Both the position numbers and the translations under genes were made by a program. A stretch of DNA of 64,000 bases, taken from positions 7,497-71,496 of the forward strand of contig JACOXD010000010.1 of the NCBI GenBank assembly GCA_016176465.1, read 5' to 3'. The DNA comes from Candidatus Daviesbacteria bacterium. Lineage in GTDB: Bacteria; Patescibacteriota; Microgenomatia; Daviesbacterales; UBA10151. Shown in pieces: positions 229-62,234 of the stretch (within the stretch, counting starts at the first letter, position 1; each line of letters begins with the position of its first letter). The notes below the pieces were generated by a model, which was not told the origin of the DNA, ran no database searches, and saw only the letters and a list, made by a program, of their open reading frames with translations.

Positions 229-296
229 ATTAATTCTTTAATCTATATGCCTAAAGTTACTCTAGTTGAACCTCAAATGGAAAACTTGTATTCTCT

Positions 297-355: not shown

Positions 356-376
356 AATATAGACTATAATTCAAGT

Positions 377-1110: not shown

Positions 1111-1302
1111 AATATTACAAACTGAAGCACGAACAGGTCCTTATAGTAGTCAGAAGTTTGGAAGAAGATATGCAAACTTTTAAGTTTCATTTTTATCTCT
1201 CCCCTAGCTCCGATTAAATAGGAGATCTTCTGATGTCATCTTGAACGATTTGAGTGAAAGATCTGCAAGTTAATTTAGAGATTCTTCGCTAAAACGCTCA
1301 GA

Positions 1303-7015: not shown

Positions 7016-7088
7016 TACGAGTAACTATATTTAAGTGTACCTTTTTCTTTAAAAAACATATAATATTTTTATTCCAAAGTAATTACCT

Positions 7089-10536: not shown

Positions 10537-10811
10537 CAAAACCTAAAGAAGATAAAAAATTTACTGTTCCAGAATCAATCATCAAGAACCTTTTAACCCC
10601 CTCTGAAATTAGGATGGTGAAAAATAGATATTTTATCATCCAGCTTTTATCTGAAGGTTTATCAATCAGGAGCGTTGCAAAAAAAGCAAAGGTAGGAACA
10701 GATACTGTTGTTAGAGTTGCCAGATTGATGGAGAAAAGCAACCTTAAAAAAAATATAGTAGTGAAAAAAACCTCAAAGACTTCTTGGGTTTTTGGCAAGG
10801 GTAATGAATAA
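10533..10811 (+). CDS. TrpR/YerC-YecD-like small DNA-binding protein
   Basis: 92 aa; HTH pattern SIRSVAKKAKVGTDTVVRVAR typical of TrpR-related YerC/YecD family; overlaps both neighbours by 4 and ~20 nt. Confidence 0.55.
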   Translation: MTKPKEDKKFTVPESIIKNLLTPSEIRMVKNRYFIIQLLSEGLSIRSVAKKAKVGTDTVVRVARLMEKSNLKKNIVVKKTSKTSWVFGKGNE

Positions 10812-49028: not shown

Positions 49029-49307
49029 GTGTCTTACTCTGTCTATATTTTAAGAACTTCATCGAACACTTTATATATTGGGCAAACCAATAATTTAGAA
49101 AAAAGAATTAAAGAGCATAAAAATAAAAAAGGTAAGGGAGCAAAATATATTAGGTCTTTTTCCTCATTTGAATTAGTTTACTTTGAAAAACTCAAAACTA
49201 GATCTGAAGCAATGAAGAGAGAATGGCAACTAAAGGGATGGACAAAAGCCATGAAAGAGACTTTAATCAACTTGGGAAGCAAGTATTTATCCAAGTCCCG
49301 CAGCTAA
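49029..49307 (+). CDS. GIY-YIG nuclease superfamily protein (YhbQ/UPF0213-like)
   Basis: VYILRTSSNTLYIGQTNNLEKRIKEH GIY-YIG motif; 3' end formed by direct repeat. Confidence 0.7.
   Translation: MSYSVYILRTSSNTLYIGQTNNLEKRIKEHKNKKGKGAKYIRSFSSFELVYFEKLKTRSEAMKREWQLKGWTKAMKETLINLGSKYLSKSRS
49278..49305. repeat. Left 28-bp direct repeat AGCAAGTATTTATCCAAGTCCCGCAGCT (att-like, contains tRNA-Gln 3' motif)
   Basis: 27/28 identical to 63612-63639. Confidence 0.65.
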
Positions 49308-49371: not shown

Positions 49372-49390
49372 CCTCCAAAGGCGGACAAGT

Positions 49391-49663
49391 ATGGCATATA
49401 GACCAAAAGATACTCAAGAAAGAATTGTTCATAGGTTAAAAATAGCTAAAGGTCATTTAGAAAAGGTTATCAAGATGGTTGAGGATGACTGCTACTGCAT
49501 TGATGTTCTCCACCAATCTCAAGCTGTTCAAAAAGCATTAAGAGAAACAGATAACCTCATGCTAGAAAATCATCTTAAAACTTGCGCTATGGATGCCATA
49601 GGTAAAGGTAGAAAAGAAGAAGCAGTTGCTGAAGTGATCCAGGTATTTAAGAAAATGTCTTAA
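49391..49663 (+). CDS. csoR: Copper-sensing transcriptional repressor CsoR/RcnR family
   Basis: 90 aa; RL.RI.GH...V.KM.ED..YC.DVL.Q..AV..AL helix pattern with conserved Cys/His. Confidence 0.8.
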   Translation: MAYRPKDTQERIVHRLKIAKGHLEKVIKMVEDDCYCIDVLHQSQAVQKALRETDNLMLENHLKTCAMDAIGKGRKEEAVAEVIQVFKKMS

Positions 49664-49786
49664 AGAAAGGAGCAGATATGTGCCCTAATTGCGGTTAAGT
49701 AAACTATGACACCAGATAAGAACCTGCTTCGCAGAACCTTGCCTTTTTGACTAGCGTCAAAAACGTAAAATTTTAGTTTTAAAATT

Positions 49787-50149
49787 ATGGAATTAGATAA
49801 GATTTTTGTAGCACTATTTAGTTTAGGAGGTATTCTATTTACTTATTGGTTTTTCTTAATGAGAAATGAAAAGGAGGTAGCTGTTACCTCTGATTCTATA
49901 GATATTACAGTTGAAGGTGGTTACCAACCAGAGGTTATATCTATTCCCAAAGGAAAAACTACCAAGCTTAATTTTCTCAGAAAAGATCCTTCCAGTTGCT
50001 TAGAAGAAGTAGTTTTAGGAGATTTTAAAGTTAGAAAAACACTACCTCTAAATCAAACTGTAACCATTCCGATTACTCCTCAAAAAGAGGGTGAATATGT
50101 TTTTAGCTGTGGAATGAACATGTTCCATGGAAAGATAAAGGTTGTCTAA
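49787..50149 (+). CDS. Membrane-anchored cupredoxin-like domain protein
   Basis: N-terminal TM, C-terminal FSCGMNMFHGKIKVV; paralogous to C-terminus of 62235-63275. Confidence 0.55.
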   Translation: MELDKIFVALFSLGGILFTYWFFLMRNEKEVAVTSDSIDITVEGGYQPEVISIPKGKTTKLNFLRKDPSSCLEEVVLGDFKVRKTLPLNQTVTIPITPQKEGEYVFSCGMNMFHGKIKVV

Positions 50150-50150
50150 T

Positions 50151-50300
50151 ATGAGTAAAAGTAAATTATATACCTGTCCTGAATGTAGATTCTCTTATAA
50201 AGATAAGGCTTTAGCTAAAAAATGTGAGGCTTGGTGCAAAAAGTACAATAGCTGTAATTTAGAAATTACAAAATACTCAGTAAACAGGGAGGTGTTGTAA
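50151..50300 (+). CDS. Small Cys-rich protein (49 aa; CPEC...C..WC...SC) between cupredoxin gene and copA
   Basis: ORF below track threshold; ATG 1 nt after upstream stop; 3' end supplies SD for copA. Confidence 0.4.
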
Positions 50301-50305
50301 AAAGT

Positions 50306-52735
50306 ATGCCAGCAGTGAGCAAGCTCTCTCCTTTGGAGATAAAAAGAACATTTTCAGTACAAGGAATGCACTGTGCTTCCTGCGTGAGGCTTATTGAAAG
50401 AGCTTTGAGTAGAACTAATGGCATATCAGAGGCAAATGTTAATCTTGCAACTAACAAAGCCACCATCACTTATGATCCTAAAAGTGTTAATGATGAGCAA
50501 ATAGAATCTTCTGTATCCAATATAGGTTATAAAGCATTATTAGACGAGGAAGTTAAATCAGAAGATGATGAGAAAAAAGAAAAACAAAAAGAATTAAGAA
50601 AGTTACAGCATAAAGTTGGTATAAGTTTATTTTTAGGATTACTAATTTTATGGGGTTCTTTTCCGGGTTTAATGAATACTGCCCCAGCTATTTTAAGAAA
50701 TTTTTGGATACAGCTTCTCCTTGCTACCCCAGTTCAATTTTGGGCAGGTTTAGATTTTTATAGAGCTACTATTCCAGCATTAAAACATAGAACAGCTAAC
50801 ATGGACACTTTAGTGGCAATTGGTACAACTGTCGCTTATAGTTATTCAGCTTTTGTCACAGCCCTTCCTCAGGTAGTTAAAAGTATTGGTATTGATCCTC
50901 TCCCTTACTTTGATGTGGCAACTATAATTATTGGTTTAATACTTCTTGGTAGATATTTTGAGGCTAAAGCTAAGGCTGGTACGTCTGAAGCAATTAAAAA
51001 ACTAATAGGTTTGCAGGCAAAAACAGCCAGAGTTTTGAGACTCTCCTCTGTCATCTCGAACGATAGTGAGAGATCTGCAGATTCTAATCTAGAGATTTCT
51101 CTCCGCCAGCTGGCGGATCGAAATGACAAAAGTGAAACAAGTGATGAGAGCAAATATTTAGAAGTAGATATTCCTATAGATCAGGTGGTTATAGGAGATA
51201 TCATTAGAGTACGTCCTGGAGAAAAAATTCCAGTTGATGGAGAAATTTTGGAGGGAGAATCCTCAATTGATGAATCAATGATTACGGGAGAAAGTATTCC
51301 AGCTGACAAAACTAAGGGCGATACAGTCGTAGGTGCAACAATTAATAAATCAGGAACATTTACTTATAAAGCTACCAAAGTAGGACAAGAGACTATGCTT
51401 GCCCAAATTATTAAACTTGTTCAAGAAGCTCAGGGTTCAAAAGCTCCTATCCAAAGAATTGCAGATCTTATTTCCTCTTACTTTGTACCTATTGTCATAA
51501 TACTTGCTTTTGCTACCTTTGGTATCTGGTATGTATTTGGTCCAACCCCAGCTCTTTTATACGCACTTCTAAATACTGTAGCAGTTTTAATTATTGCCTG
51601 TCCTTGTGCCATGGGACTGGCTACACCAACAGCTATTATGGTAGGTACAGGAAAGGGTGCAGAGCATGGAATTTTAATTAAAGATGCAGAAAGTTTAGAA
51701 ACTGCCCACAAAATTAAGACGGTCATCTTTGATAAAACTGGAACTTTAACAAAAGGAAAACCAGAAGTGACAGATATCATTGCGAGGAGTGAAATGATGA
51801 AGCAATCTATAAAGAGAAGATCGCCACGCTTCGCTCGCGATGGCATACTTCGTTTGGCTGCTTCAATAGAAAAAGGCTCTGAACATTCTTTAGCTGAGGC
51901 AATAGTCCAAGAAGCTGAAAAACAAAATATTCAACTGGAACCTGTCACAAAGTTCAAAGCTATTGCAGGGCATGGAGTGGAAGGAGTTGTTGATGGAAAG
52001 CAAGTTTATTTTGGAAACCGAAAATTAATGGAAAGAGAAAAAGTAAGAATCCTAAAACTTGTTCAGGATGACATAGAAAGGTTAGAAAGTGAAGGTAAAA
52101 CTGTAATGATATTAGCAACCTCCTCCCGTCATTCTGAGCGAAGCGAAGAATCTCAACTTATTGGTCTTGTGGCTGTAGCAGATACCGTCAAAGATACTGC
52201 TAAAGAAGGTGTAAAAGCTTTGCAGAAAATGGGTATAGAAGTTGTTATGATCACTGGAGATAACACAAGAAGTGCTAAAGCTATTGCAGATCAGGTAGGT
52301 ATTAAAAGAGTTTTGGCAGAAGTACTACCAGATCAAAAAGAAGCTGAAGTAAGGAAGATTCAAGCGGAGGGCAAAAAAGTGGCAATGGTTGGAGATGGGA
52401 TTAATGATGCACCCGCCTTAGCAGCAGCAGATATTGGAATAGCTATGGGAAGTGGTACGGATGTGGCAATTGAGGCAGCGGATATTACCTTAATAAATAA
52501 GGACCTTAAATCTGTAGCTCAAGCTATTAACCTCTCCAAAAAGACAATGAGAACTATAAAATTAAATCTTTTTTGGGCATTTGGCTATAATGTTTCACTG
52601 ATTCCTGTAGCAATGGGAGTTTTATATCCTTTTTGGGGAATATTGTTAAATCCAATCTTTGCCTCAGTTGCTATGGCCACAAGTTCTATATCAGTTGTTG
52701 GAAACTCATTACTTTTAAAAAGAGTAAGGATTTAA
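50306..52735 (+). CDS. copA: Copper-translocating P1B-type ATPase
   Basis: N-terminal HMA GMHCASC, CPC motif [26 protein letters not shown]; contains at least three in-frame low-complexity/palindromic inserts. Confidence 0.9.
51040..51140. repeat. ~100-bp in-frame palindromic insert in copA (includes perfect 14-bp palindrome CCGCCAGCTGGCGG) encoding ~35 aa [36 protein letters not shown]
   Basis: Segment has no counterpart in canonical CopA between TM4 and the actuator domain. Confidence 0.5.
51816..51846. repeat. In-frame GC-rich repeat (reverse orientation, CGCTTCGCTCGCG) in copA N-domain encoding ~[11 protein letters not shown]
   Basis: Shares core with recX insert. Confidence 0.5.
52128..52154. 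repeat. In-frame repeat GTCATTCTGAGCGAAGCGAAGAATCTC in copA encoding [10 protein letters not shown]
   Basis: 29/32 identical to 56521-56552; GTCATTC head shared with element at 297. Confidence 0.6.
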
Positions 52736-52736
52736 A

Positions 52737-53324
52737 ATGAAAGCATTACCTTCAAAGTTTATTTTAACAAAAAAACCTAAGGAATATTTAAAACAAGGGC
52801 TAACTCATTGTGGTGCTTACTCTGTAAAAGCTATTATAGAAGCATTTGATAAAGACTACAAAAAAGATCCAAGAGATTATCACACTTTTTGGTTAAATAG
52901 ATTAATAGGTACAGGGCTATGGAGATCTTATTATGTGGATATATTAAAATCATTTGATTTAAACGCAAAAGCCAAAGAAGCTAAGAGTCTAACAGACAAA
53001 GAACATTTAGATTTACTTAAGCAATTATTATCCACTAATAATCCTGTGATGATCTATGTTGGGAATGGTTATACAAAAACTGGTGAATACAATAAGCTGC
53101 GAGCAGCACTAGTTGGTCATTGGGTCACTCTTTGGGGTTATTCTGATTCAGAACAAGTATTTTATGTATATGATTCTGCTGCCCCAAAAAAGTTATACGA
53201 TAATGTTCCAGTCGGTAATAAAAAAAGAACTTATGAGCAAATATTAAGAGATTGGAAGGGTGCAAAAATTACTAAATTTATTTGGCCCTGGGAATATTTC
53301 TATATAGAAGTAAAAAATCAATGA
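52737..53324 (+). CDS. Papain-like (C39-like/BtrH-like) cysteine peptidase domain protein
   Basis: Candidate catalytic Cys in LTHCGAYSV and His in GHWVTLWGY; weak. Confidence 0.4.
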   Translation: MKALPSKFILTKKPKEYLKQGLTHCGAYSVKAIIEAFDKDYKKDPRDYHTFWLNRLIGTGLWRSYYVDILKSFDLNAKAKEAKSLTDKEHLDLLKQLLSTNNPVMIYVGNGYTKTGEYNKLRAALVGHWVTLWGYSDSEQVFYVYDSAAPKKLYDNVPVGNKKRTYEQILRDWKGAKITKFIWPWEYFYIEVKNQ

Positions 53325-53602
53325 AAAAACATTTCTTACTATTTTTTCTAGATGATTTTCATCAAGGGGCTATGAATCATTTAATACATTTTGTGGGTTT
53401 CACAGTTTTAGGATACGGATTAGGAAAACCAAGTTTATTTTTAATAATACTCTCTCCTTTTATAATGGAATCAGGACATATTTATAATTATTTAACTGGA
53501 AGACATAAAGAGCTAGCTATAAAAATAATTCCTTTACAGCTTTTAGCATGGGTTATATTTGTAGGCATCGGCTATTTAATTGCTAATTTTTTTGGATACT
53601 AA
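53321..53602 (+). CDS. Small His-rich membrane protein (3 TM)
   Basis: ATG overlapping upstream stop (ATGA); His clusters HQGAMNHLIHF, ESGHIYNY. Confidence 0.4.
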   Translation: MKKHFLLFFLDDFHQGAMNHLIHFVGFTVLGYGLGKPSLFLIILSPFIMESGHIYNYLTGRHKELAIKIIPLQLLAWVIFVGIGYLIANFFGY

Positions 53603-53603
53603 A

Positions 53604-53739
53604 TAATGGGTCTTTGGATAATATTTTTAACTGGTCTAACAGTTGGAGGCTTAACTTATTTAGCCGTACAAGGAGGTCTTCTTGCCTCAGTTGCTATGGC
53701 CACAAGTTCTATATCAGTAGTTCTAACTCTTTATTGTTA
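53604..53739 (+). pseudogene. Chimeric gene remnant: first ~28 codons of a 62235-like gene (MGLWIIFLTGLTVGGLTYLAVQGGLLAS) fused to last ~12 codons of copA ([11 protein letters not shown]...)
   Basis: 5' part matches 62235-62320 at protein and DNA level; 3' part GCCTCAGTTGCTATGGCCACAAGTTCTATATCAGT identical to copA 3' end (52661-52695). Confidence 0.6.
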
Positions 53740-53834
53740 AAGAGGTTCAAGATATGAACCAGACATGTCCTTTCGTTGAGGTATTCTTCCCATTTTTGAA
53801 ATAACTAGTTAACTCTGATTCTGTAGTTTAACTC

Positions 53835-53873
53835 TTTGACATCTGAATGCAGGGATACTACACTTAGTAGTAG
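53835..53873 (+). promoter_or_regulatory. Promoter TTGACA-17-TACTAC with operator palindrome TACTAC-ACTTA-GTAGTA (copy 1)
   Basis: Same palindrome at 58048 and 61442, each ending at a start codon. Confidence 0.55.
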
Positions 53874-53894
53874 ATATTAGAACGAACCAATAAA

Positions 53895-54941
53895 ATGAAC
53901 AAAATACTAATTCTTATAGTTCTATTAATCGTATCAGCAGCAGGGATATTTTTGTATATAAATAGATTTCAAAAACCAGTTGAAGTCTCTCAAGAGGTCT
54001 TGAATAAACTTAATGAAAATAAACCTACTCTTTCCCAAGATGAGGATAGGTTTTTAAATCTGCTTGAGCAAAACGCAGTCTCAGGTGGTCCTCCAAAAGA
54101 TGGCATCCCCGCCATAGATAAACCTCAATATACAACTGCTGCTGAAGCTGATTCTTGGCTTTTACCAAATGATGTTGTTTTTGGAATAGATTACCAAGGT
54201 TTTGTTGCAGCATACCCTCAAAGGATTTTAGTTTGGCATGAAATATTAAATGATCAAATAAACAGACAAAAGGTATCTATTAGTTATTGTCCTCTAACTG
54301 GCACTGCCATTGGTTTTGAGGCTTCAGTAACTAAAGATCTAGATTCATCCTTTGGAGCATCAGGAAAGTTGGTTAACTCTAATTTAATTATGTATGACAG
54401 AATTAGTGATTCCTACTGGCCTCAAATTTTAGGTAAAGCCATTAATGGTCCAGCTAAGGGGAGGAATTTGCAAGAGTTTCCAGTAGTTTGGACAACATGG
54501 GATAAATGGAAAACAAAGTTTCCAGAAACAAAAGTACTTTCTAAAAATACTGGATTTGTTCGTAACTATGATGTTAATGGTGATCCCTATGGATCATATC
54601 TTAGAGAAGATAAAGGATATTATGCTTCTGACAGGCTAATTTTTGAACCGATAAATAAGCAAAGCTTTTCTTCGAATAAGGATGATCGTTTAAAACCGAA
54701 AACAGTAGTAGTGGGAATTCGTGATAAGGATGGTAATGCTGTAGCAATTTTGAAAGATTCTCTGCGCCAACAAAAGAAAATGGAAGTTTCTTTAGGAGAT
54801 AAAGTGGTGGTAGTTGATTATGATCAAAGCCTAGATTTTTACCAAGCATCTGTAAAAGATACAAAAGAAGCGATTAATGCTTTTGATGCTATGTGGTTTG
54901 CCTGGGTAGCATTCTATCCCAATACTAAGTTAATAGAATAA
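53895..54941 (+). CDS. DUF3179 domain protein
   Basis: N-terminal TM; conserved SYCPLTGT block. Confidence 0.55.
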   Translation: MNKILILIVLLIVSAAGIFLYINRFQKPVEVSQEVLNKLNENKPTLSQDEDRFLNLLEQNAVSGGPPKDGIPAIDKPQYTTAAEADSWLLPNDVVFGIDYQGFVAAYPQRILVWHEILNDQINRQKVSISYCPLTGTAIGFEASVTKDLDSSFGASGKLVNSNLIMYDRISDSYWPQILGKAINGPAKGRNLQEFPVVWTTWDKWKTKFPETKVLSKNTGFVRNYDVNGDPYGSYLREDKGYYASDRLIFEPINKQSFSSNKDDRLKPKTVVVGIRDKDGNAVAILKDSLRQQKKMEVSLGDKVVVVDYDQSLDFYQASVKDTKEAINAFDAMWFAWVAFYPNTKLIE

Positions 54942-54942
54942 A

Positions 54943-55506
54943 ATGTTAGCGTTATTTTTATCAATAATTACACAGAGAAAATTTTTCTTAGTAGCCTTGA
55001 TTGTTTTTGTGGTATATATTCTAATTTATTTAGCTGCAGTAGGACATTTGATCTTCACATCCCGCATGGAGCCAGCTTATTCATTTTTAGAAGTAAAATT
55101 CTTGACAAACTGGCAACAACTTCTACTGCGACAAAGGTCACCTTTTTTGTTTGAAGCAATTGGGGCAATCTATATAGGTCCCAATATCAAACTATTTCTC
55201 TCAATTCCTAACTTGATACTTGCTTCAGTGTTAGGATTTCTTGTCGGATCTAACTTTGCCTTAAGTTATTATAACTTTAAGAGATTAGGGTTATCAGGTG
55301 GAAAAGGAGCAGTTGCACTTTTGGGAACCATTCCGGCTATTGTTTCGGGAAGTGTTTGTTGTGTTCCTACTCTGATTCTGGTGCTAGGATTACAATTAAC
55401 AGCTACTTTAGCCACAGCGTGGTCTTTTTTTATTCCACTTTCAATAATCCTGCTTATTTTAAGTCTAGTATGGTCTGTAAAAAGAATTGAAACTGGAAGA
55501 TTGTGA
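54943..55506 (+). CDS. Membrane protein with MerT-like intramembrane Cys-Cys motif (GSVCCVPTLILVLG)
   Basis: 4-5 TM; CC pair in TM resembling MerT TM1 (TCCLGPLVL). Confidence 0.4.
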   Translation: MLALFLSIITQRKFFLVALIVFVVYILIYLAAVGHLIFTSRMEPAYSFLEVKFLTNWQQLLLRQRSPFLFEAIGAIYIGPNIKLFLSIPNLILASVLGFLVGSNFALSYYNFKRLGLSGGKGAVALLGTIPAIVSGSVCCVPTLILVLGLQLTATLATAWSFFIPLSIILLILSLVWSVKRIETGRL

Positions 55507-55522
55507 GGGGAGGTGAAGAATA

Positions 55523-55771
55523 ATGGCAAAAGTAAAAGTTTATTCAATAACAACGTGTCCATATTGTCATATGCTCAAAGAATATTTAAAGGAGAAGAAT
55601 GTAGCTTTTGAAGATATAGTTCTTGACTACAGTCCCGATAAGGCAGTCGAGGCTATTCACATATGTCAGTCAATGGGTGTCCCTTGCACACATATCGTAA
55701 AGGACGATGGAAAGGAAGTTGCCATCTTGGGATTTGACAAAGAAGCAATAGATCGCGCACTCGGACTGTAA
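55523..55771 (+). CDS. Glutaredoxin/NrdH-like redoxin (CPYC)
   Basis: 82 aa; VYSITTCPYCHMLKEYL. Confidence 0.75.
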   Translation: MAKVKVYSITTCPYCHMLKEYLKEKNVAFEDIVLDYSPDKAVEAIHICQSMGVPCTHIVKDDGKEVAILGFDKEAIDRALGL

Positions 55772-55804
55772 TGGAGGGAGGTGCAAAAGGTTATTAATAA
55801 AAAC

Positions 55805-57193
55805 ATGAATAACAAATATGATGTTATTGTAATTGGGGGAGGATCGGCAGGGTTTTCTGTTTTGGAGCAGATTGCCCATAAAGGCTTAAAGATTGCCCTG
55901 GTGGAAAATAGAAAATTGGGAGGATCTTGTCCTAATTTTGCCTGTGTACCCTCTAAAGCTTTAATCAAATGTGCTGAAGTTCTACACACAGCTTTGAATG
56001 CTGATAAATTTGGTATAAATGTTTCTAATATAGGATTTGACTGGAAAAGAGTACAAGAATTTAGAGCAGGTAAGGTAGCTAATACTGCTGCTGCAGAGTC
56101 TGAACAAGATTTAAAAGAAAAAGAGGTTGATCTTATTTGGGGCACTGCCAAGTTTATTTCAGCTTCTGAGATTGAAGTAGATGGGAAGATTTATTCAGCT
56201 GATAAGTTTGCCATTACCACCGGCTCAAGGCCTTTGGTTTTACCAATTGATGGTTTGGAAGAGATTGGTTTTTTAGATTCTGATCAAGGTCTGCAAATAG
56301 ATAAATTGCCTAAATCCTTAACTATACTAGGTGCTGGGCCTGTGGGAATTGAAATAGCTCAGATGTTTGCCAGATTTGGGGTCAAAGTAGCAGTGATCAA
56401 TAGAGGTGGACAGATACTTGGTAGAGAAGAACCAGAAGTGGCAAATCTCGTTCAGGGATTTTTAGAAAAAGAGGGAGTGGAGTTTTTATTAAATGCTCAA
56501 GTTAAAAAAGTGATGCTTCAGCGTCATCCTGAGCGCAGCGAAGGATCTCAAAATCTGAAGCTACTGGAGATAGAAGTCAGTGGGCAGAAAGGAACAATGG
56601 AAGTGGAGCAAATTCTGGTTGCTCCAGGTAGGATTCCCAATATTGACATGCTTGATCTTAAAAAAGCTGGAGTGAAAACTTATGAGAGAGGAATTGTGGT
56701 TGATGAGTACATGCAGACCTCACAGCCTCACATCTATTCTGCTGGAGATGTGGCAGGAATCATGCTTTTTACCCATGCAGCATCTTATGAGGGCTTTATT
56801 ATTGGACAAAACCTCTTGGGCAACAAAATGGAGGTAGATCATAAGGTGATACCAAGAGGAACGTTTTCTGATCCGGAGGTAGGTAGCGTGGGAATAATGG
56901 AAAAAGAGGCCAGGGACAAGGGTTTGAAAGTACAAACTGCTTTGATGGATTATACAGGAGGGAGAGGAGATATCCAGGATGACCCCCTAGGATTAACTAA
57001 GGTGACTGTTGATGCTAAAACCAGACAAATCCTTGGGGCATCAGTAGTGGGTAGAGGCGCTGCTGAGTTTGTGCATATGATAGCCATGGCCATGCATCAT
57101 AAAATTAAAGTTGATGATTTAGATACTCTTGTTTATGCCTTTCCCACTTATGCAGAAGGGTTAGCTGGAATTACTTCCTATCTTAAGGATTAG
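55805..57193 (+). CDS. Class I pyridine nucleotide-disulfide oxidoreductase (MerA/Lpd-like; lacks NmerA and C-terminal Cys pair)
   Basis: GGGSAGF, redox CxxxxC GGSCPNFACVPSK, HPxE-type dimer interface; ATG 55805 preferred over GTG 55781; carries in-frame repeat at 56514-56559. Confidence 0.8.
   Translation: MNNKYDVIVIGGGSAGFSVLEQIAHKGLKIALVENRKLGGSCPNFACVPSKALIKCAEVLHTALNADKFGINVSNIGFDWKRVQEFRAGKVANTAAAESEQDLKEKEVDLIWGTAKFISASEIEVDGKIYSADKFAITTGSRPLVLPIDGLEEIGFLDSDQGLQIDKLPKSLTILGAGPVGIEIAQMFARFGVKVAVINRGGQILGREEPEVANLVQGFLEKEGVEFLLNAQVKKVMLQRHPERSEGSQNLKLLEIEVSGQKGTMEVEQILVAPGRIPNIDMLDLKKAGVKTYERGIVVDEYMQTSQPHIYSAGDVAGIMLFTHAASYEGFIIGQNLLGNKMEVDHKVIPRGTFSDPEVGSVGIMEKEARDKGLKVQTALMDYTGGRGDIQDDPLGLTKVTVDAKTRQILGASVVGRGAAEFVHMIAMAMHHKIKVDDLDTLVYAFPTYAEGLAGITSYLKD
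56514..56559. repeat. In-frame repeat GCTTCAG-CGTCATCCTGAGCGCAGCGAAGGATCTCAAAAT-CTGAAGC encoding QRHPERSEGSQNLK
   Basis: Flanked by 7-bp inverted repeat; homologous to copA insert at 52128. Confidence 0.6.
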
Positions 57194-57196
57194 CAT

Positions 57197-57730
57197 ATGT
57201 ACAATCAACAAAAACTTTTAAAATTCAGAAAGCAAAAAGACGAAGCTTGGAAAGAAGATGCCCAGTCTCCCTTAGCTGAGGAGCAAAAGCGAAGCTTTAA
57301 AGGTCTAAATTATTTTCCTCCTAATCCTGATTTTAGTTTTGAACTAGAGTTAAATAAAAATATCCCTGGTGTGGGTGAGAGAGTAGTAATTAAAACAACG
57401 GGTGGGGATGAGCAGGTCTATTTAAGAGCTGGAAGGGTCAAGTTCAATGTTGAGGGTAAAGAGGTAGAGGCATTAGTGTTTGAAGATCCAGAGCAAGAAC
57501 AGTTTCAATATTATTTATTATTTAGAGACCAAACAACAGGAAAGGAAACTTATGAAAATGGCAGAATGTTACAAATCCCTAAAAAAGGAGATAAGTTAGT
57601 AATCGATTTTAATTATGCATATAATCCCTATAGCTCATATAATAACAATTGGGATTGTCCAATTACCCCTCAAGAAAATATCTTACCTTTGGCAATTCAG
57701 GCTGGAGAAAAGATTTTTAAGAACTTATGA
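57197..57730 (+). CDS. DUF1684 domain protein
   Basis: Pattern F.GL.YFPP...F; WDCPITP motif. Confidence 0.5.
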   Translation: MYNQQKLLKFRKQKDEAWKEDAQSPLAEEQKRSFKGLNYFPPNPDFSFELELNKNIPGVGERVVIKTTGGDEQVYLRAGRVKFNVEGKEVEALVFEDPEQEQFQYYLLFRDQTTGKETYENGRMLQIPKKGDKLVIDFNYAYNPYSSYNNNWDCPITPQENILPLAIQAGEKIFKNL

Positions 57731-57772
57731 ATGTTGTGTATAAAATTCTGCCTGGAAGGGGGTGATAGCTTA

Positions 57773-58000
57773 ATGAAGAAACTTCTTATAGGAGGGGTTG
57801 CAGCTGCAATAATGTATGCAAGCATGGTAGTACCTGTTTTTGCTGATGGGCCAACTAGTCCCAATGTTAGTCCAGTTGTTGTTCCCTTAGCTCAGACAGG
57901 AACTTTTGGTCAAACTGTTTGTAGCGTTCTTGGCCAGGCTAATCTTGAGAATAATGTGGTTTTAACAGTACAGGGGCATGACCCCTCTCACATTAACTGA
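57773..58000 (+). CDS. Small secreted protein (signal peptide)
   Basis: MKKLLIGGVAAAIMYASMVVPVFA signal; SD GGAAGGGGGTGA. Confidence 0.4.
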   Translation: MKKLLIGGVAAAIMYASMVVPVFADGPTSPNVSPVVVPLAQTGTFGQTVCSVLGQANLENNVVLTVQGHDPSHIN

Positions 58001-58047
58001 AGTGGTCTACTTCCTAAAAATAAACAGTTGCTTTATTAAAAACTTAG

Positions 58048-58067
58048 TACTACACTAAGTAGTAGTA
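58048..58067 (+). promoter_or_regulatory. Operator palindrome TACTAC-ACTAA-GTAGTA (copy 2) ending 2 nt before blaI-like start
   Basis: Read directly; nested larger palindrome ACTTAGT...ACTAAGT. Confidence 0.55.
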
Positions 58068-58069
58068 AT

Positions 58070-58462
58070 ATGGAAAAACAGCAAAAGGTTGGTAAAGTGT
58101 TAGGTGAGTTAGAATCAGAAGTGATGGAGATAATTTGGCAATCTAAAATGCCAATTTCTGTAAGAACTGTTACTCAAATCTTGCAAACAAAGCGCCAGAT
58201 TGCTTATACAACAGTCATGACCATTATGGGGAGATTAACTGATAAAGGTTTGCTTAAGCGTACAGAATCTGGTAAAGCATATATTTACAGATCAGTCTAT
58301 TCAAAAGAAAAGTTTCTTACCAGAGTATCCCGCCAGATTATTAAAAATTTTGTTGCTAATTTTGGTGACGGCGCAGTAGCTCATTTTGCAGCGGAAGTGG
58401 AAAAACTAGAACCTTCTAAGAGGAAAGACTTAACTAAATTATTAAAGGAGGTAAGAAAATAG
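58070..58462 (+). CDS. BlaI/MecI/CopY family winged-helix repressor (no C-terminal metal-binding Cys motif)
   Basis: LGELESEVMEIIW....VR.V..IL...R.IAYTTVMT...RL..KGLL. Confidence 0.8.
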   Translation: MEKQQKVGKVLGELESEVMEIIWQSKMPISVRTVTQILQTKRQIAYTTVMTIMGRLTDKGLLKRTESGKAYIYRSVYSKEKFLTRVSRQIIKNFVANFGDGAVAHFAAEVEKLEPSKRKDLTKLLKEVRK

Positions 58463-58463
58463 C

Positions 58464-59477
58464 ATGGGTGCTAACAAAGCCTTCTGCATGCTCCTACTCT
58501 CTTTTGTTGTTGCTTTAGTTGGTTTGGGTACTGTGTTTTTTAAAACAGTTCCGCTCCTTCTTTCTCATGCAGTTTATGTTTGCCAAGAGACTTTCTCTAA
58601 TATTCTTTTTGGCATCTCGCATTCTGTTCCTCTTGTTCTAATTACTTTAGTAATCATGGTTTTACTTATTGGTCTTGTAACTTTATTGATACAAGTTTTA
58701 AAAACTAGAAATTATCTTAAGAAGCATATGAGAGAAAGAGTACCCATCCCCTCTAGTTTGATAGAAATAACCAAAGAACTTGGCTTAAATGATAGCGTTG
58801 ATGTTGTTAAAGATAGAAGTAAATTTTCTTTCTGTTATGGATTGATTCACCCTAGAATTTGTTTAAGTACAGGTCTTTTAAGATCATTAAATACAAGAGA
58901 ACTTAAAGCAGTGATACTTCATGAGAGTTACCATGTTAAAAATCGGGATCCACTTAAAATAATCCTTGGCAAAACAGCATCTTTAATGTTCTTCTTTATT
59001 CCATTGCTAAAAGATATTCAAAACTTCTATGCTTTATCAAAAGAGATAGCTGCAGATAAACTTGTGGTCGGTAATGGATATAGACATTCCCTAATTTCCG
59101 TTCTTTCAAAGCTTTTAGTGGCTGGCTCATCTAAATTCAGTGGCGTAGCAGCACTAGCTAGTTTAGATGATTTAGAAAGAAGGATACTGTTGCTCACAGG
59201 TAATCAGAAAAGATCAATATTTAAACCCTCACTGCTCAACATATCAATGTCGGCTTTTGTAGTTTTGTTTTCCCTGGCACTTATGAATACCCCAGCTTAT
59301 GCAGTTTCTGATCATGAAGGGTCTATGGAAAGCTCAATGTTTACTGCGAAGCAGGAAGTTTACTTCATTTGTCCTTTTGGGGATAAATGTGCGCTGTCTT
59401 GCAAGGCAAAGGAAGAGGAGGGTGGAAATTACAGTCAAGACTTAATGTATACACCGATGCATTACACACCAAAATGA
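58464..59477 (+). CDS. BlaR1-like M56 family membrane metalloprotease lacking penicillin-binding sensor domain; Cys-rich C-terminal tail
   Basis: HEXXH HESYHVKNRD; 4 TM; C-terminal CPFGDKCALSC. Confidence 0.7.
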   Translation: MGANKAFCMLLLSFVVALVGLGTVFFKTVPLLLSHAVYVCQETFSNILFGISHSVPLVLITLVIMVLLIGLVTLLIQVLKTRNYLKKHMRERVPIPSSLIEITKELGLNDSVDVVKDRSKFSFCYGLIHPRICLSTGLLRSLNTRELKAVILHESYHVKNRDPLKIILGKTASLMFFFIPLLKDIQNFYALSKEIAADKLVVGNGYRHSLISVLSKLLVAGSSKFSGVAALASLDDLERRILLLTGNQKRSIFKPSLLNISMSAFVVLFSLALMNTPAYAVSDHEGSMESSMFTAKQEVYFICPFGDKCALSCKAKEEEGGNYSQDLMYTPMHYTPK

Positions 59478-60442
59478 ACAGTAAATTAGTTTATATCATA
59501 GTTGCGGTTTTGCTTTTAGGAGGAGTAGTTTTCTTTGCTCAAAAACAAGCGGGTGCTCCGAAACTTAAATCTGAAACAGCACAAAGCTTACCTGCAACAA
59601 CGCAAGAAGAATCTGTTAGGGAAAATTCAACTTATGGTCATGTACACGCTTTAATTTCTAATCCTCAAGATAACAGCCTATTGTTGGGTACTCATGAAGG
59701 TTTGTTTAAGAGTGCAGATGGAGGGAAAACTTTTCAGAAAGTGGGTGTTAAAGGTGAAGTTAATGCAATGGATTTCATGAACTTTGCGTATGACCAGAAT
59801 AATAAAATCATTTATGCTGGTGGACATGATTTGGGAGTTGTTAAAAGCACTGATGGTGGAGTAACTTGGGCAAAAACAGATTCAGGGATTCAAGGTACGG
59901 ATATTCATGCTTTGGCTATGAACCCCCTTGATACTAACAGGTTATATGTTTTCTCAGTAGGTAATGGAGTTTATGGAACTAAAGATGGGGCAAAAAGTTG
60001 GTATAGAATTGATGATGGACCAGCGAACCCATCTGTAGTAGCTTTTGGATATATGGCAACTCCCTCAAGTATGGACCGCGGTATGAAAACTGATAAAACT
60101 ACTAATATTGGCTACCTTTGGGCAGGAACTGGAGGAGGGTTATATAGCTCATTTGCTTGTTTCTGTGGCTGGACTAAAACATCAGGTGTAACAGATAGAG
60201 CCACTATTTATACACTTGCTCCTGATCCAATAGACAAAAGTAGTATGCTTGCAGGAACCAAAGATGGTATTTACAAAACGACTGATGAGGGGAGAAATTT
60301 TACTAAGATAAGTGATATTAAAGACATTGCTGCCCTTAATTTTAATACATCTAATCCTAAAACAATTTATGCTGCTACTGCCGATGGTGCGATTTATAGA
60401 AGTGATGATGAAGGTAAGAATTGGAGTAAAGTGAATGAATAA
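59474..60442 (+). CDS. Ycf48-like/BNR-repeat beta-propeller protein, membrane-anchored
   Basis: Repeated S.DGG.TW / T.DG..W blades; ATG overlaps upstream stop (ATGA). Confidence 0.55.
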   Translation: MNSKLVYIIVAVLLLGGVVFFAQKQAGAPKLKSETAQSLPATTQEESVRENSTYGHVHALISNPQDNSLLLGTHEGLFKSADGGKTFQKVGVKGEVNAMDFMNFAYDQNNKIIYAGGHDLGVVKSTDGGVTWAKTDSGIQGTDIHALAMNPLDTNRLYVFSVGNGVYGTKDGAKSWYRIDDGPANPSVVAFGYMATPSSMDRGMKTDKTTNIGYLWAGTGGGLYSSFACFCGWTKTSGVTDRATIYTLAPDPIDKSSMLAGTKDGIYKTTDEGRNFTKISDIKDIAALNFNTSNPKTIYAATADGAIYRSDDEGKNWSKVNE

Positions 60443-60671
60443 GCAAAGCTTGTCTTTTGCTGTCGCAAAACGTAAGTTTTTTAACAGCTGTAGGCGCTGT
60501 TTAAACCCCTGGATAATTGCCTTAATTACTGTTGTAGTGGTTGGATTATTAATTTTTCTTCCTATTTTAGGAGTAGCAACTTTGATAGCAGCTCTTCCTC
60601 TGGTAGGTTGTACTGTAATGTGTGGTGCAATGGCTCTTATGATGCGGGATCACAAAAAAGATAAAAGTTAA
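60435..60671 (+). CDS. Small membrane protein with intramembrane Cys cluster (GCTVMCG)
   Basis: ORF, 2 TM. Confidence 0.4.
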   Translation: MNKQSLSFAVAKRKFFNSCRRCLNPWIIALITVVVVGLLIFLPILGVATLIAALPLVGCTVMCGAMALMMRDHKKDKS

Positions 60672-60673
60672 GT

Positions 60674-61414
60674 ATGAGATTGATTTTCCTGCCCATTGTT
60701 GTATTTATTATCTTAGCTGTAACGCTTTTATCGCAAAATTTATTTCCAAAAAATACACTCGAGTCAACTATTGCAAATTGGAATGATGGAACAGATGCTT
60801 TTTATCAGCAGGTTTTAAAAAGTGATGGTGATTGGGTAGATCATGCAGGTGAGGCAGTTTTTGATAACTATCCTGTAAAAAGTATTTCAAAGCTGGAAAC
60901 AGAAAATATTTTGGCACAAGCAAGGCAGCCACAACCACCAGTTTTGGGACTGCATACTGCACCTGACGGAGCAGAAAAATGGATTGAGATAGACCTATCT
61001 AATCTTAAACTTTATGCTTGGGAAGGAAACCGCAAAGTTTATGAATTTTTAATATCAACAGGCCGTCCTGGCTATAACACCCCTACAGGTGAGTTTAGGG
61101 TTTGGAGAAAGGTACTATCACAAGCCTATAAAGGCGGCTCAAGAGAAAGGGGCGATTACTACTACTTACCTAATGTTCCCTTCTCTTTATTTTTCGGTGG
61201 CGGAAATGTTTCTAACTGGAAAGGTTATGCTATCCATGGAGCATATTGGCACAGTGACTTTGGTATAAAAAACAGGAGTAGTGGGTGTGTAAATGTGAAA
61301 CCTGAAGAAGCAGGACTTTTGTACCAATGGGCTGGTCCTGCTATGCCTGCTGGGACAGGAGTTTTAAATTCAACTCCTGATAACCCTGGTGTAAGAGTAA
61401 TCGTACATGATTAA
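60674..61414 (+). CDS. L,D-transpeptidase (YkuD domain)
   Basis: YAIHGAYWHSDFG...SSGCVNV catalytic His/Cys motif. Confidence 0.75.
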   Translation: MRLIFLPIVVFIILAVTLLSQNLFPKNTLESTIANWNDGTDAFYQQVLKSDGDWVDHAGEAVFDNYPVKSISKLETENILAQARQPQPPVLGLHTAPDGAEKWIEIDLSNLKLYAWEGNRKVYEFLISTGRPGYNTPTGEFRVWRKVLSQAYKGGSRERGDYYYLPNVPFSLFFGGGNVSNWKGYAIHGAYWHSDFGIKNRSSGCVNVKPEEAGLLYQWAGPAMPAGTGVLNSTPDNPGVRVIVHD

Positions 61415-61421
61415 TTTCCCC

Positions 61422-61461
61422 TTGACAAGTTAAAGTTTATCTACTACAGTAAGTAGTAGTA
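61422..61461 (+). promoter_or_regulatory. Promoter TTGACA-17-TACAGT with operator palindrome TACTAC-AGTAA-GTAGTA (copy 3) abutting start codon
   Basis: Read directly. Confidence 0.55.
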
Positions 61462-62231: not shown

Positions 62232-62234
62232 CAA

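Follow-up and report, generated by a model that had tools for sequence, protein, structure and literature searches.

Several conserved genes in a contig of a Candidatus Daviesbacteria bacterium contain short GC-rich segments that keep the reading frame and are missing from homologous proteins. What are these segments, and how did they come to occupy such genes? We addressed these questions in a 64-kb stretch of the contig (hereafter the window, meaning the whole stretch analysed), for which an earlier note had proposed a family of short GC-rich palindromes inserted in frame in the manner of the Rickettsia palindromic elements (RPE). Our analysis confirms the observation and supports that interpretation. 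We consider it probable (roughly 0.75) that each segment is a copy of a DNA hairpin repeat that is short, non-autonomous and a member of the super-family comprising the CGTC-tagged REP and NTS-SRM sequences, and that this repeat was spread in trans by an Ssn-type nuclease. The earlier note overstated the novelty of the family, because the repeats themselves and their in-frame intragenic copies are already known in other phyla and a cognate nuclease family, Ssn, has been described. What appears to be new is the host lineage, a candidate phyla radiation genome; the bulged sub-type to which the focal units belong, which the published SRM search pattern overlooks; and the occupation, alike in unrelated lineages, of three loops of CopA.

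Anatomy of the repeat unit

The window holds nine intact units and about seven decayed ones (Table 1), mostly as inverted pairs: three intact and two decayed pairs stand against two singletons. CopA contains five units at three sites, the CCA-adding enzyme one pair, and RecX decayed copies. Units are 27 nt long and follow the grammar (T/C)GTC-AT-NNN...N'N'N'-AT-C-T. The first letter, T or C, precedes the tag GTC, which stays unpaired, and the stem after it always begins with A-T and T-A. The inner part varies; beyond the complementary arm come a C that never changes and, in most cases, a T. In the bulged sub-type a 5-bp stem is followed by a GA/GA bracket around an exchangeable inner hairpin, here the GCGAAGC mini-hairpin. 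The GTC tag, the AT-opening stem and the 3' C are common to all nine intact units, although the C was no criterion of the scan that found them; seven of these units begin with TGTC and two with CGTC. Among 149 units of other genomes, 82% have T at position -1 and 11% have C there. An inverted partner lies 11-89 nt away from 41 of 151 units in other genomes.

Table 1. Repeat units of the window and the GIY-YIG gene that it contains.
Positions	Strand	Feature and sequence	Context and remarks
296-323	+	Canonical unit, TGTC-ATTCCCGC-GGAA-GCGGGAAT-CCAT	8-bp stem, 4-nt loop, CCA tail
331-356	-	Canonical unit, TGTC-ATTCCGGA-CTTGA-TCCGGAAT-C	8-bp stem, 5-nt loop; right half, pair with 296-323
407-431	-	Decayed bulged unit, reverse complement CTTGCCCTGAGCGAAATCGAAGGGT	recX, N-terminal coding part (TLRFRSGQA); low confidence
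675-735	-	Two decayed tagless units	recX (RTRFASRSEN...LARGTLPF); direct reading
1235-1263	+	Bulged unit, GTC-ATCTT-GA-ACGATTTGAGT-GA-AAGAT-C	Left half, intergenic inverted pair immediately upstream of RNase Y gene
1280-1307	-	Bulged unit, GTC-ATTCT-GA-GCGTTTTAGC-GA-AGAAT-C	Right half, pair with 1235-1263
33439-33477	+	Unit, GTC-ATCCT-GA-GGTGCGGGTCCCTTTAGGGAG-GA-AGGAT-C	Inside CCA-adding enzyme gene (- strand gene); half of in-frame pair
33482-33507	-	Decayed partner, ATC-ATTTT-AAGCGCCAGCGA-AGAAT-C	CCA-adding enzyme gene; tag GTC changed to ATC; direct reading
33653-33692	-	Possible decayed unit, GTGAACAAGTGAGC...GCGAAGATTT (VSEQVSGDADHSEDL)	CCA-adding enzyme gene; GC island; low confidence
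49029-49301	+	Single-domain GIY-YIG gene, 90 aa	Pfam GIY-YIG, E = 4e-20; context
51050-51075	+	Bulged unit, GTC-ATCTC-GA-ACGATAGT-GA-GAGAT-C	copA site A; read VISNDSERS
51094-51127	-	Bulged unit, GTC-ATTTC-GA-TCCGCCAGCTGGCGGA-GA-GAAAT-C	copA site A; [12 protein letters not shown]
51776-51807	+	Decayed unit, (ATC)-ATTGC-GAGGAGTGAAATGATGAA-GCAAT-C	copA site B, left half; GTC tag gone via 3-nt deletion
51819-51844	-	Decayed unit, GCC-ATCGC-GAGCGAAGCGTG-GCGAT-C	copA site B, right half; read RSPRFARDG
52127-52153	+	Focal 27-nt unit, CGTC-ATTCT-GA-GCGAAGC-GA-AGAAT-C-T	copA site C; read RHSERSEES
56522-56548	+	Unit, CGTC-ATCCT-GA-GCGCAGC-GA-AGGAT-C-T	Pyridine-nucleotide disulfide oxidoreductase gene; 27 nt; read RHPERSEGS

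The outer arms vary with compensation (ATTCT/AGAAT, ATCCT/AGGAT, ATCTC/GAGAT, ATTTC/GAAAT, ATCTT/AAGAT). When a search was seeded solely with the inner core, fully paired arms of 12 types were found in 29 of 150 cores, with 4.4 expected, and of these 29 the GTC tag precedes 23 and a C follows the palindrome in 28. A scan of the window for the grammar (GTC, a 5-nt arm opening with AT, a complementary arm and C) gave 10 matches as compared with 0.6 in shuffled sequence. The matches at 10495-10537 and 23980-24015, which are AT-rich and correspond to no insert, and the one at 52049-52072, which lies within conserved copA sequence and likewise marks no insert, were rejected as chance.

The predicted folds of the focal units are no more stable than those of shuffled sequence (z about 0) under nearest-neighbour DNA parameters, in which neither tandem G.A pairs nor the GCGAAGC mini-hairpin are represented. 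Standard parameters thus lend the focal units no thermodynamic support, and it is the covariation of the arms that underlies the structural claim. For the unit at 51094-51127 the predicted fold (-8.7 kcal/mol, z = -3.2) recovers the outer stem, the 2x2 internal loop and the inner stem, and the canonical hairpins at 296-323 (-9.0 kcal/mol, z = -3.9) and 331-356 (-7.6 kcal/mol, z = -4.0) also fold well below shuffled sequence. The shortness of the focal units and their unremarkable fold energies might suggest that the similarity arose by chance, or that the segments are lineage-specific low-complexity protein loops rather than inserted DNA. We regard this reading as extremely improbable and reject it, given that the core CTGAGCGMAGCGAAG is present exactly twice in the window where shuffles lead one to expect 0.03, that a 25-mer of the bulged sub-type is found in more than 120 loci where about 0.02 would be expected in 596 Gb (our own calculation, assuming equal base frequencies), that the arms are compensatory, and that empty and filled orthologous sites both exist.

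Insertions in conserved genes

The units at 52127-52153 in copA and 56522-56548 in the reductase gene are non-random and are missing from homologues. The earlier note had quoted both sequences correctly, the copA copy (GTCATTCTGAGCGAAGCGAAGAATCTC at 52128-52154) and the reductase copy (CGTCATCCTGAGCGCAGCGAAGGATCTCAAAAT, with its flanks GCTTCAG/CTGAAGC). In the reductase, the nine inserted residues are missing in the MerA/Lpd structures 5x1y and 1ebd and in all 58 other homologues aligned; the nearest homologues (70-76% identical) are 451-454 aa long as against 462 aa, and the insert is placed at an N-G-K turn. Compared with the Bacillus stearothermophilus enzyme (1miv), the CCA-adding enzyme is longer by 24 residues at 135-158 (nt 33445-33516), a stretch involving both paired units, and at 33653-33692 it has about 13 residues more than 1miv and 7otr. 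The segment of recX at 675-726, which had been listed as a family copy, is decayed and extends over 675-735; it adds only about 7-10 residues relative to the RecX structure 3d5l, and the Pfam RecX_HTH1 match is broken here. At 407-431 the outer arms CCCT/AGGG pair, and the tag is not GTC (GC-island scan and direct reading). Homologues of CopA, the reductase and the CCA-adding enzyme lack the extra residues, and no sharing of these residues by unrelated homologues was seen.

Copies between genes were also on the earlier list. That at 297-355 is indeed related, as an inverted pair upstream of recX with outward-facing tags, whose left half is the unit at 296-323, but its two hairpins are of the canonical kind with 8-bp stems, and the CTGAGCGAAGCG core is missing from them. 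The left half differs from the Neisseria NTS consensus CGTCATTCCCGCGMAVGCGGGAATCYRG at 3 of 28 positions, with 0 such matches expected. The proposed copy at 1064-1110, a CGTC followed by a CCGGC/GCCGG hairpin just past the recX stop, lacks the AT-opening stem and the 3' C and is not counted here as a member of the family; nor did it score as a terminator. The list missed the copies at 51050-51075 and 51094-51127, 1235-1307, 33439-33477 and 33482-33507, and 407-431; many copies thus exist beyond those first noticed, in the window and in other genomes. A resemblance of the units to the hammerhead or another ribozyme (CUGA...GAAG) was discarded for want of the required N-G-A, and tRNA was the sole Rfam match in the window at gathering thresholds.

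Three loops of CopA, filled and empty

At site A, CopA carries a segment of about 37 residues (246-285) that is missing in Archaeoglobus fulgidus CopA (3j09) and in the empty orthologues L123, L124, L126 and L128; the AF2 model predicts coil at 250-282, with pLDDT below 50. At site B, 13 residues at 498-512 are missing in 3j09. The interval 51816-51846, which had been taken for a copy in its own right, does belong to the family, not as a whole element but as the decayed right half of an inverted pair whose tagless left half lies at 51776-51807. In a codon alignment the sister genome L121 keeps an intact GTCATTGCGAGGAGTGGTAACGACGAAGCAATC at the position equivalent to the left half, and the intact partner of the right half lies at 11409-11434 of L121. 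At site C, alignment with 3j09 leaves a gap of exactly nine residues (at HSERSEESQ); the unit is missing in four empty orthologues and 100% identical in the carriers L125 and L127. Here the AF2 model places the insert as coil between strands 598-606 and 617-625. The inserts of CopA, placed at D-G-K turns, all fall in predicted loops, as the structural modelling proposed with the earlier note was meant to check.

The recurrence of the same insert in a CopA loop could reflect lateral, homing-like spread of the filled allele through homologous recombination (transformation) rather than repeated insertion. The carriers of site C are scattered on the CopA tree (20 Fitch changes as against 23 with random labels), the nearest neighbour is empty for 10 of the 15 carriers at 80-86% identity, all carriers are alike in orientation and frame, and no amino-acid column among those that best separate carriers from non-carriers is more than about 50 residues away from the site. 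These columns, however, may reflect structural accommodation of the loop. Across 40 codons on each side, third-codon identity among carriers is 0.43-0.55 as against 0.40-0.48 gene-wide, and because it is not raised there is no recent co-converted tract; we therefore reject recent homing with co-conversion, as third-codon positions do not separate the carriers in the way that the amino-acid columns do. Moreover, recombination is inefficient between genes that are about 75% identical, and the known nuclease SsnA cuts element-bearing DNA and not empty DNA (Chenal et al. 2025, Nat Commun 16:2388). On balance, lateral spread of the filled allele is unlikely to account for the pattern.

The same loops also bear on the possibility that the hairpins are retained for a host function, as transcript-end, mRNA-stability, nuclease or gyrase sites, with the protein inserts being adaptive loops and not selfish passengers. 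Three lineages share the site-C unit at 100% identity despite saturation of their synonymous sites, and covariation of the S/E and P/G residue pairs preserves the stem in 12 of 12 carriers. Outside copA, intergenic pairs lie immediately upstream of recX and of the RNase Y gene, where the ATGAC end of the unit at 1280-1307 overlaps the first ATG of the ORF; many CGTC-type repeats have been argued to act as RNA elements (Di Nocera 2013, BMC Genomics 14:522), and transformation of Neisseria is modulated by the sites (Chenal et al. 2025, Nat Commun 16:2388). Yet most orthologues do without the inserts and show no sign of a cost, decay is evident in several of the window's copies, the proteins that carry inserts are unrelated, and the 25-mer occurs in every context type across at least 15 phyla. 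Retention for a host function therefore seems quite unlikely.

Distribution and association with Ssn-like genes

At least 15 phyla share the 25-mer of the bulged sub-type without a single difference, and it escapes the published search pattern. That degenerate SRM pattern, an operational search string derived from 29 genomes of four phyla (Chenal et al. 2025, Nat Commun 16:2388), has 0 matches in the window, with 0.08 in shuffled sequence. Searches of the literature for the exact DNA or peptide strings returned chance matches only. Consistent, within the literature searched, with the suggestion of the earlier note that the family is undescribed in this kind of genome, the two principal studies (Di Nocera 2013; Chenal et al. 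2025) are both silent on Patescibacteria.

Clustering of the ORFs in 120 loci that carry the 25-mer recovered a small GIY-YIG family in three loci, independently of Chenal et al. (2025). In loci L021 and L114 units stand on both sides of the small single-domain GIY-YIG gene, a unit adjoins the gene in L077, and in the Patescibacteria locus L209 units flank both genes. Units reach a density of 1.44 per kb in the Ssn-like loci of the candidate phyla radiation, as against 0.13 in shuffles. The Ssn nuclease family corresponds to CDD entry cd10448. The Ssn-like proteins consist of one GIY-YIG domain each, 92-110 aa in length, and between phyla they share 58-68% identity, which fits the occurrence of an identical 25-mer in at least 15 phyla. 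In the L114 protein the Tyr...Glu spacing is 47 residues, equal to that of Y17-E64 in SsnA of N. meningitidis (CAX49033.1), a correspondence that we infer from our own count.

We found no Ssn-like gene within the 64-kb window. Its sole GIY-YIG gene (49029-49301) is nearer to UPF0213, the nearest solved structure for its product being UPF0213 BH0048, and in 80 loci with its closest relatives (64-79% identical) units are not enriched (0.106 per kb, with 0.074 in shuffles). This gene is probably not the cognate nuclease of the repeats.

Relation to known repeat families

The CGTC repeats have a CGTC or TGTC tag, AT-opening stems and 3-nt tails, are mostly paired, include intragenic copies and lack a transposase; their listed hosts are Proteobacteria, Chlorobi, Bacteroidetes, Spirochaetes and Thermotogae, and bulged members may have slipped through the authors' own search (Di Nocera 2013, BMC Genomics 14:522). 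The Daviesbacteria units share with them the unpaired tag, the AT-opening stem, a short 3' tail, inverted pairs, frame-keeping copies in genes and the lack of a linked transposase. The 8-bp stem with a 4- or 5-nt loop is found only in the units at 296-323 and 331-356. Whereas the four families of Di Nocera have continuous 8-9-bp stems with 4-5-nt loops and CCA tails, seven units, among them the focal ones at 52127 and 56522, combine a stem of only 5 bp with a 2x2 GA/GA internal loop and an inner hairpin, the tail of the focal units being CT(C). The hosts differ as well, with Patescibacteria being absent from the phyla listed in that study.

The comparison with RPE proved closer than an analogy. 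RPE-1 is 100-150 bp long and restricted to Rickettsia. Like the RPE (Ogata et al. 2000, 2002), the Daviesbacteria units are selfish palindromes of a small, AT-rich genome, lodged in frame within conserved genes and tolerated there as additional surface segments. Both groups are palindromic repeats in frame in conserved genes and missing in orthologues, but the Daviesbacteria units are 27 nt long (60-120 nt as pairs) and cross-phylum. Di Nocera, De Gregorio & Rocco (2013, BMC Genomics 14:522) place Neisseria dRS3 and RPE-4 and RPE-6 of Rickettsia conorii among the CGTC-tagged REPs; only these two RPE have been assigned to the super-family of the Daviesbacteria units, a placement taken from that study. 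The units carry the marks of CGTC-tagged REPs, and one of them fits the NTS consensus.

SsnA cuts NTS/SRM hairpins as single-stranded DNA; what it depends on are the C that follows the palindrome and three bases upstream, and its gene is arranged as NTS-ssnA-NTS (Chenal et al. 2025, Nat Commun 16:2388). The units of this study are likewise oriented hairpins with GTC before the palindrome and C after it, positions that matter for cleavage and binding by SsnA, and a small single-domain GIY-YIG gene lies between units in L021, L114 and L209. They differ in that copies in coding regions and in Patescibacteria were not reported for NTS/SRM. Features of a MITE derived from an insertion sequence with a DDE transposase were not found: inspection showed no direct repeats flanking units or pairs, and no transposase family recurs near them.

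A possible route of spread

How CGTC-tagged repeats multiply has been a question since 2013, and Ssn, the sole enzyme linked to them, was described in 2025 and studied for transformation rather than for repeat spread. The small single-domain Ssn GIY-YIG nucleases of other bacteria bind hairpins of this kind solely as single-stranded DNA; the C after the palindrome serves binding and the three bases before it cleavage, with the cut falling just upstream. Their gene typically sits between two units, like a miniature insertion sequence. The units of Daviesbacteria were probably spread in trans by such a nuclease, encoded elsewhere in the genome or since lost. The anatomy of the units, their insertion, their loop positions and their association with Ssn-like genes are direct results of the analysis. 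We infer that the bulged sub-type may be cut in the same way, and the Ssn-like proteins of L021 or L209 would then bind or cut single-stranded GTCATTCTGAGCGAAGCGAAGAATC. Spread would begin with nicks in single strands, either at replication forks or in incoming DNA, after which repair or copying would place units at new sites, singly or as inverted pairs. With a length of 27 nt and four open reading frames out of six, copies that come to lie in permissive beta-turn loops are retained as 9-residue inserts, or as inserts of about 20-37 residues in the case of pairs.

We know of no demonstration that Ssn enzymes spread their own sites. To our knowledge, GIY-YIG nucleases form no covalent intermediate, so that cut-and-paste of the IS200/IS605 kind cannot simply be assumed. 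REP/REPIN sequences with RAYT (Nunvar 2010; Bertels & Rainey 2011; Ton-Hoang 2012) have a GTAG tag and an HUH tyrosine transposase and are usually lineage-specific. They share with our units tagged hairpins recognised as single-stranded DNA, inverted doublets, a non-autonomous nature and a tie to a single-copy enzyme gene flanked by repeats, and one could suppose that the units are classical REP/REPIN moved by a REP-associated Y1 (HUH) tyrosine transposase through single-strand peel-and-paste. Their form is REP-like, with a short GC-rich hairpin, an unpaired 5' tag and mostly inverted pairs; precise excision and targeted insertion would account for copA sites being filled in some lineages and empty in others; and L127, a candidate phyla radiation contig with a filled copA, carries a Y1_Tnp gene (7046-7574). 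That gene, however, has no flanking units, a tblastn search with its product found no match in the window or in the 120 element-bearing loci, and the ORF clustering of these loci revealed no recurrent transposase, nor was a RAYT found with the units. The tag is GTC rather than GTAG, and no transposase was found tied to CGTC repeats (Di Nocera 2013, BMC Genomics 14:522). Movement by a Y1 transposase is thus very unlikely.

A further reading, which we hold as a possibility rather than an expectation, is that the bulged 27-nt unit is an actively mobile, horizontally shared module, repeatedly and precisely inserted at or excised from the same (G/A)AY-GGN-AAR beta-turn codons of conserved proteins in many lineages, with an Ssn-type single-strand nuclease as the driver. 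Were this correct, the unit would amount to a mini-insert with preferred sites, able to edit loops of proteins without any splicing, and a first route for the multiplication of CGTC/SRM repeats would be at hand. The system is, in any case, extended to the candidate phyla radiation. The CopA of Microgenomates offers a natural experiment: close relatives differ in whether the same three loops hold an insert, and the element stays identical while synonymous sites are saturated. With this pattern, existing metagenomes and simple biochemistry would suffice to test insertion specificity, excision and homogenisation. In practical terms, the units inflate protein lengths, create spurious hypothetical ORFs, break assemblies and can mislead alignments of conserved genes in metagenome-assembled genomes.

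Relation to known repeats

The short sequences that an earlier note had pointed out within copA and a disulfide reductase gene, and had likened to the palindromic elements of Rickettsia, are present exactly as quoted, and in this window of 34.7% G+C the core that they have in common, CTGAGCGMAGCGAAG, occurs twice against an expected 0.03. The finding is real and its reading is right in kind, but the hairpin units are a variant of a known super-family that includes RPE-4 and RPE-6, and not a new class. The CGTC-tagged REPs, to which Neisseria dRS3 and Rickettsia RPE-4 and RPE-6 belong, often have TGTC as their tag, a stem that starts with AT and a 3-nt tail; they occur mostly as inverted dimers, with intragenic copies, in five host phyla, and no transposase was reported for them (Di Nocera et al. 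2013). SsnA, a small GIY-YIG nuclease with a single domain, binds and cleaves the NTS hairpins of Neisseria and their 'SRM' relatives in single-stranded DNA and is inactive on duplexes and on RNA; its binding depends critically on the C that follows the palindrome and its cleavage on the three bases that precede the palindrome, and the gene is often arranged NTS-ssnA-NTS (Chenal et al. 2025). The window's unit at 296-323 differs from the NTS consensus by 3 mismatches of 28, where 0 such matches are expected, and the published SRM pattern has no match in the window. Patescibacteria are mentioned neither by Di Nocera et al. (2013) nor by Chenal et al. (2025), and the latter paper makes no mention of intragenic copies. 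The window's CopA is 100% identical to a protein annotated to Candidatus Daviesbacteria, which belongs to the Microgenomates of the candidate phyla radiation. The remaining interest lies in the host lineage, in a sub-type missed by the published pattern, in identity across phyla and in the repeated occupation of the same protein loops.

Structure of the units

A hairpin scan anchored on GTCAT, with the 3' side unconstrained, recovered nine intact units in the window, a wider set than the two focal copies, and a stricter grammar scan gave 10 matches against 0.6 in shuffles. In each of the nine, an unpaired GTC (preceded by T in seven and by C in two) is followed by a stem starting with A-T and T-A, a variable middle, the complementary arm and, directly after it, a C on which the scan placed no requirement. 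In 149 units of other genomes, GTC is preceded by T in 82% and by C in 11%, and the final C is followed by T in 79%. With the T or C before GTC and the T after the final C, each unit therefore has a length of 27 nt, equal to nine codons; read directly, the focal unit has four of its six reading frames open and TGA in the other two. The bulged units enclose GCGAAGC, GCGCAGC, GCGTTTTAGC, ACGATAGT, ACGATTTGAGT, TCCGCCAGCTGGCGGA or, in one case, a longer inner hairpin.

Under DNA nearest-neighbour parameters, the predicted folds of the unit at 51094-51127 and of the plain hairpins are much more stable than those of shuffled sequences (z -3.2 to -4.0), and those of GCGAAGC-type units are not (z about 0). 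Because of this, the structure of the GCGAAGC type rests on covariation of its arms. When the search was seeded on the inner core alone, and copies selected by database pattern were left out, the 5-nt arms were fully paired in 29 of 150 cores, compared with 4.4 when arms were dealt at random, and 12 different arm pairs were represented among the 29.

Features in the window and in related contigs
Feature	Coordinates	Remarks
Plain hairpin units	296-323, 331-356	8-bp stem, 4- or 5-nt loop
Bulged units (other 7 of 9 intact)		5-bp outer stem and GA...GA bracket enclosing an exchangeable inner hairpin
Pair in CCA-adding enzyme gene	33439-33477, 33482-33507	
copA site A	51050-51075 / 51094-51127	intact pair; codon alignment
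copA site B	51776-51807 (left) / 51819-51844 (right)	decayed pair
copA site C	52127-52153	focal unit
Reductase gene unit	56522-56548	focal unit
GIY-YIG gene, the window's only one	49029-49301	Pfam E = 4e-20; GKGAKY motif; closest structures UPF0213
CsoR-type repressor (candidate)	49392-49664	read by eye; matches Trns_repr_metal gene preceding copA in related loci
Cupredoxin gene	49787-50149	within candidate copper-resistance stretch, as is copA
DsbD_2/cupredoxin gene	62235-63275	candidate copper-resistance stretch
Retroelement-associated GIY-YIG gene	3001-3300 in L211-L213; 2108-2407 in L214	same order in four contigs

Insertions in conserved genes

Compared with A. fulgidus CopA (3j09), the window's CopA has extra residues at 246-285, about 13 at 498-512 and exactly nine (HSERSEESQ) at 608-616. 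We aligned the codons of its gene with those of four empty orthologues and one filled sister; the three loops with inserts are called sites A, B and C. At site B, a 3-nt deletion has removed the GTC of the left unit, the right unit has ATGGC where ATGAC is expected, and both units are still intact in the sister genome L121. The copy assigned earlier to the reverse orientation at 51816-51846 is indeed a copA member, but it is one half (51819-51844) of this decayed pair, and its counterpart in L121 is intact. The reductase insert is a clean gain of nine residues, missing from 58 of 58 other aligned homologues; together with the gaps in 3j09 and the empty CopA orthologues, this bears out the claim that the segments are in-frame insertions that homologues lack. 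A 24-residue insert in the CCA-adding enzyme holds an inverted pair, and the gene possibly contains a third, decayed unit. In RecX, where a copy had also been proposed, about 7-10 extra residues are present, but the copies are decayed. Structural modelling agrees with a position in loops: when CopA is modelled with AlphaFold2 (mean pLDDT 71), coil flanked by regular elements is predicted at all three insert sites, with residues 250-282 and 501-503 at pLDDT below 50 and residues 607-616 lying between strands 598-606 and 617-625.

The stretch from about 49390 to 63275 resembles a copper-resistance island and contains six of about 15 listed units, one of them in the reductase gene and the other five in copA; CopA orthologues from other loci are heavily colonised too. 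At the other end, the RNase Y reading frame has its first ATG (1303) within the ATGAC end of the unit at 1280-1307, and translation probably begins instead at the ATG at 1318. Units of this kind can give rise to false N-terminal extensions in gene calls. Upstream of the inverted pair at 296-356 there is a partial duplicate of the 5' end of recX (248-290 versus 377-410; ATGCCTAAAGTTACTCTAGTTGAACCTCAA versus GTGAAGATTACCCAGGTAGAACCTCAAA at the recX start, about 18/25 in the best stretch), which runs into the hairpin pair and then a stop (MPKVTLVEPQMENLYSLSFPRKRESI*) and may be a trace left by the arrival of the pair.

CopA loops across lineages

We aligned 120 CopA orthologues, 69-80% identical to the query, mostly about 740 aa long and largely from metagenomic contigs, whose named sources are Daviesbacteria, Curtissbacteria, Levybacteria, Microgenomates, Parcubacteria and Patescibacteria. 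Element-derived inserts, from different sub-families and either single or paired, occupy the same three loops A, B and C in 22, 38 and 25 of the 120 sequences, respectively. Their presence requires 19, 27 and 20 Fitch changes, compared with 20.6, 32.3 and 23.0 for shuffled labels, and thus carries almost no phylogenetic signal. The 15 carriers of RH(S/P)ERSE(E/G)S resemble one another no more closely (76.4% identity) than they do non-carriers (76.0%), and for 10 of them the nearest neighbour, at 80-86% identity, is empty. The site C unit is 100% identical in the window and in loci L125 and L127, whose copA genes agree at third codon positions by 0.43-0.55 in the flanks of site C and 0.40-0.48 gene-wide. 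Within the site C insert, covariation of the residue pairs S/E and P/G preserves the stem in 12 of 12 carriers.

This pattern of carriers and empty sites excludes a single old insertion that was passively inherited. The CopA data are compatible with targeted insertion on several occasions, with precise excision and with ongoing homogenisation, and favour none of these over the others. In the sister genome, the site C unit (L121 11715-11748) has the same tag, outer stem and codon position as the window's, with TCCGCCACCTGGCGGA as its inner hairpin in place of GCGAAGC; TCCGCCACCTGGCGGA is nearly equal to the inner hairpin of the window's own unit at 51094-51127, which suggests that inner modules may be exchanged between copies. 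Where sites A and C are empty in the aligned orthologues, the sequence is mostly (G/A)AY-GGN-AAR, a D/N-G-K turn, and in most reductase homologues the insertion site is likewise N-G-K or a similar turn.

Occurrence beyond the window

The exact pattern GTCATYCTGAGCGNAGCGAAGRATC is found in at least 120 loci from at least 15 phyla among one-genome-per-species contigs, where about 0.02 occurrences would be expected in 596 Gb under equal base frequencies. These loci range from 29 to 68% G+C, have unrelated flanks and include closed chromosomes and isolates (Mucilaginibacter sp. L196, Hymenobacter glaciei). For 41 of 151 units in other genomes an inverted partner lies 11-89 nt away. Truncated 5' halves, each consisting of about 7 nt of flank plus GTCATCCTGAGC and sometimes repeated in tandem about every 19-20 nt, occur within 45 nt before 21 of the 151 full units (e.g. 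in loci L016, L046, L067, L082, L088, L100, L105 and L108) and after none of them. Abortive copying could produce this polarity, as could stalling or slippage at the foot of the hairpin.

Candidate mobilising enzyme

Clustering of reading frames in 120 GTCATYCTGAGCGNAGCGAAGRATC loci among the matches listed revealed no recurrent transposase, and a small GIY-YIG family in three loci. Units bracket the GIY-YIG genes of L114 and L021, one unit adjoins that of L077, and both such genes of the Patescibacteria locus L209 are flanked by units. Proteins related to this family occur in Pseudomonadota, Clostridia, Chloroflexota, Nitrospirota and Patescibacteria and share 58-68% identity between these groups, and near Ssn-like genes of the candidate phyla radiation the unit density is 1.44 per kb versus 0.13 in shuffles. 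In 80 loci with relatives (64-79% identical) of the window's own GIY-YIG gene, units are not enriched (0.106 per kb versus 0.074 in shuffles), and we therefore do not regard that gene as the cognate enzyme.

Ssn enzymes bind single-stranded DNA specifically and cut upstream of the hairpin (Chenal et al. 2025). The bulged sub-type, with GTCATTCTGAGCGAAGCGAAGAATC as the putative single-stranded substrate, would be cut by the neighbouring GIY-YIG proteins, and nicking followed by repair or copying would spread the units; genic copies would be the survivors of selection for multiples of 27 nt in open frames at beta-turns. More speculatively, stalling of replication or template switching at the hairpin foot may account for the tandem 5' half-copies and for the interchangeable inner hairpin.

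A Y1_Tnp gene (HUH motif NHFHLL; L127 7046-7574, minus strand) is found on a candidate phyla radiation contig that also carries a filled copA; it has no flanking hairpin units, and neither the window nor the 120 listed loci contain a counterpart. In Parcubacteria (L211-L214), an Ssn-like GIY-YIG gene (P0211) lies between the bAvd and reverse transcriptase genes of a diversity-generating retroelement. Most of the Ssn-like proteins P0121-P0240 come from very short contigs (0.5-2 kb) in a large database, which would be expected if metagenome assemblies broke at the gene and the repeats beside it.
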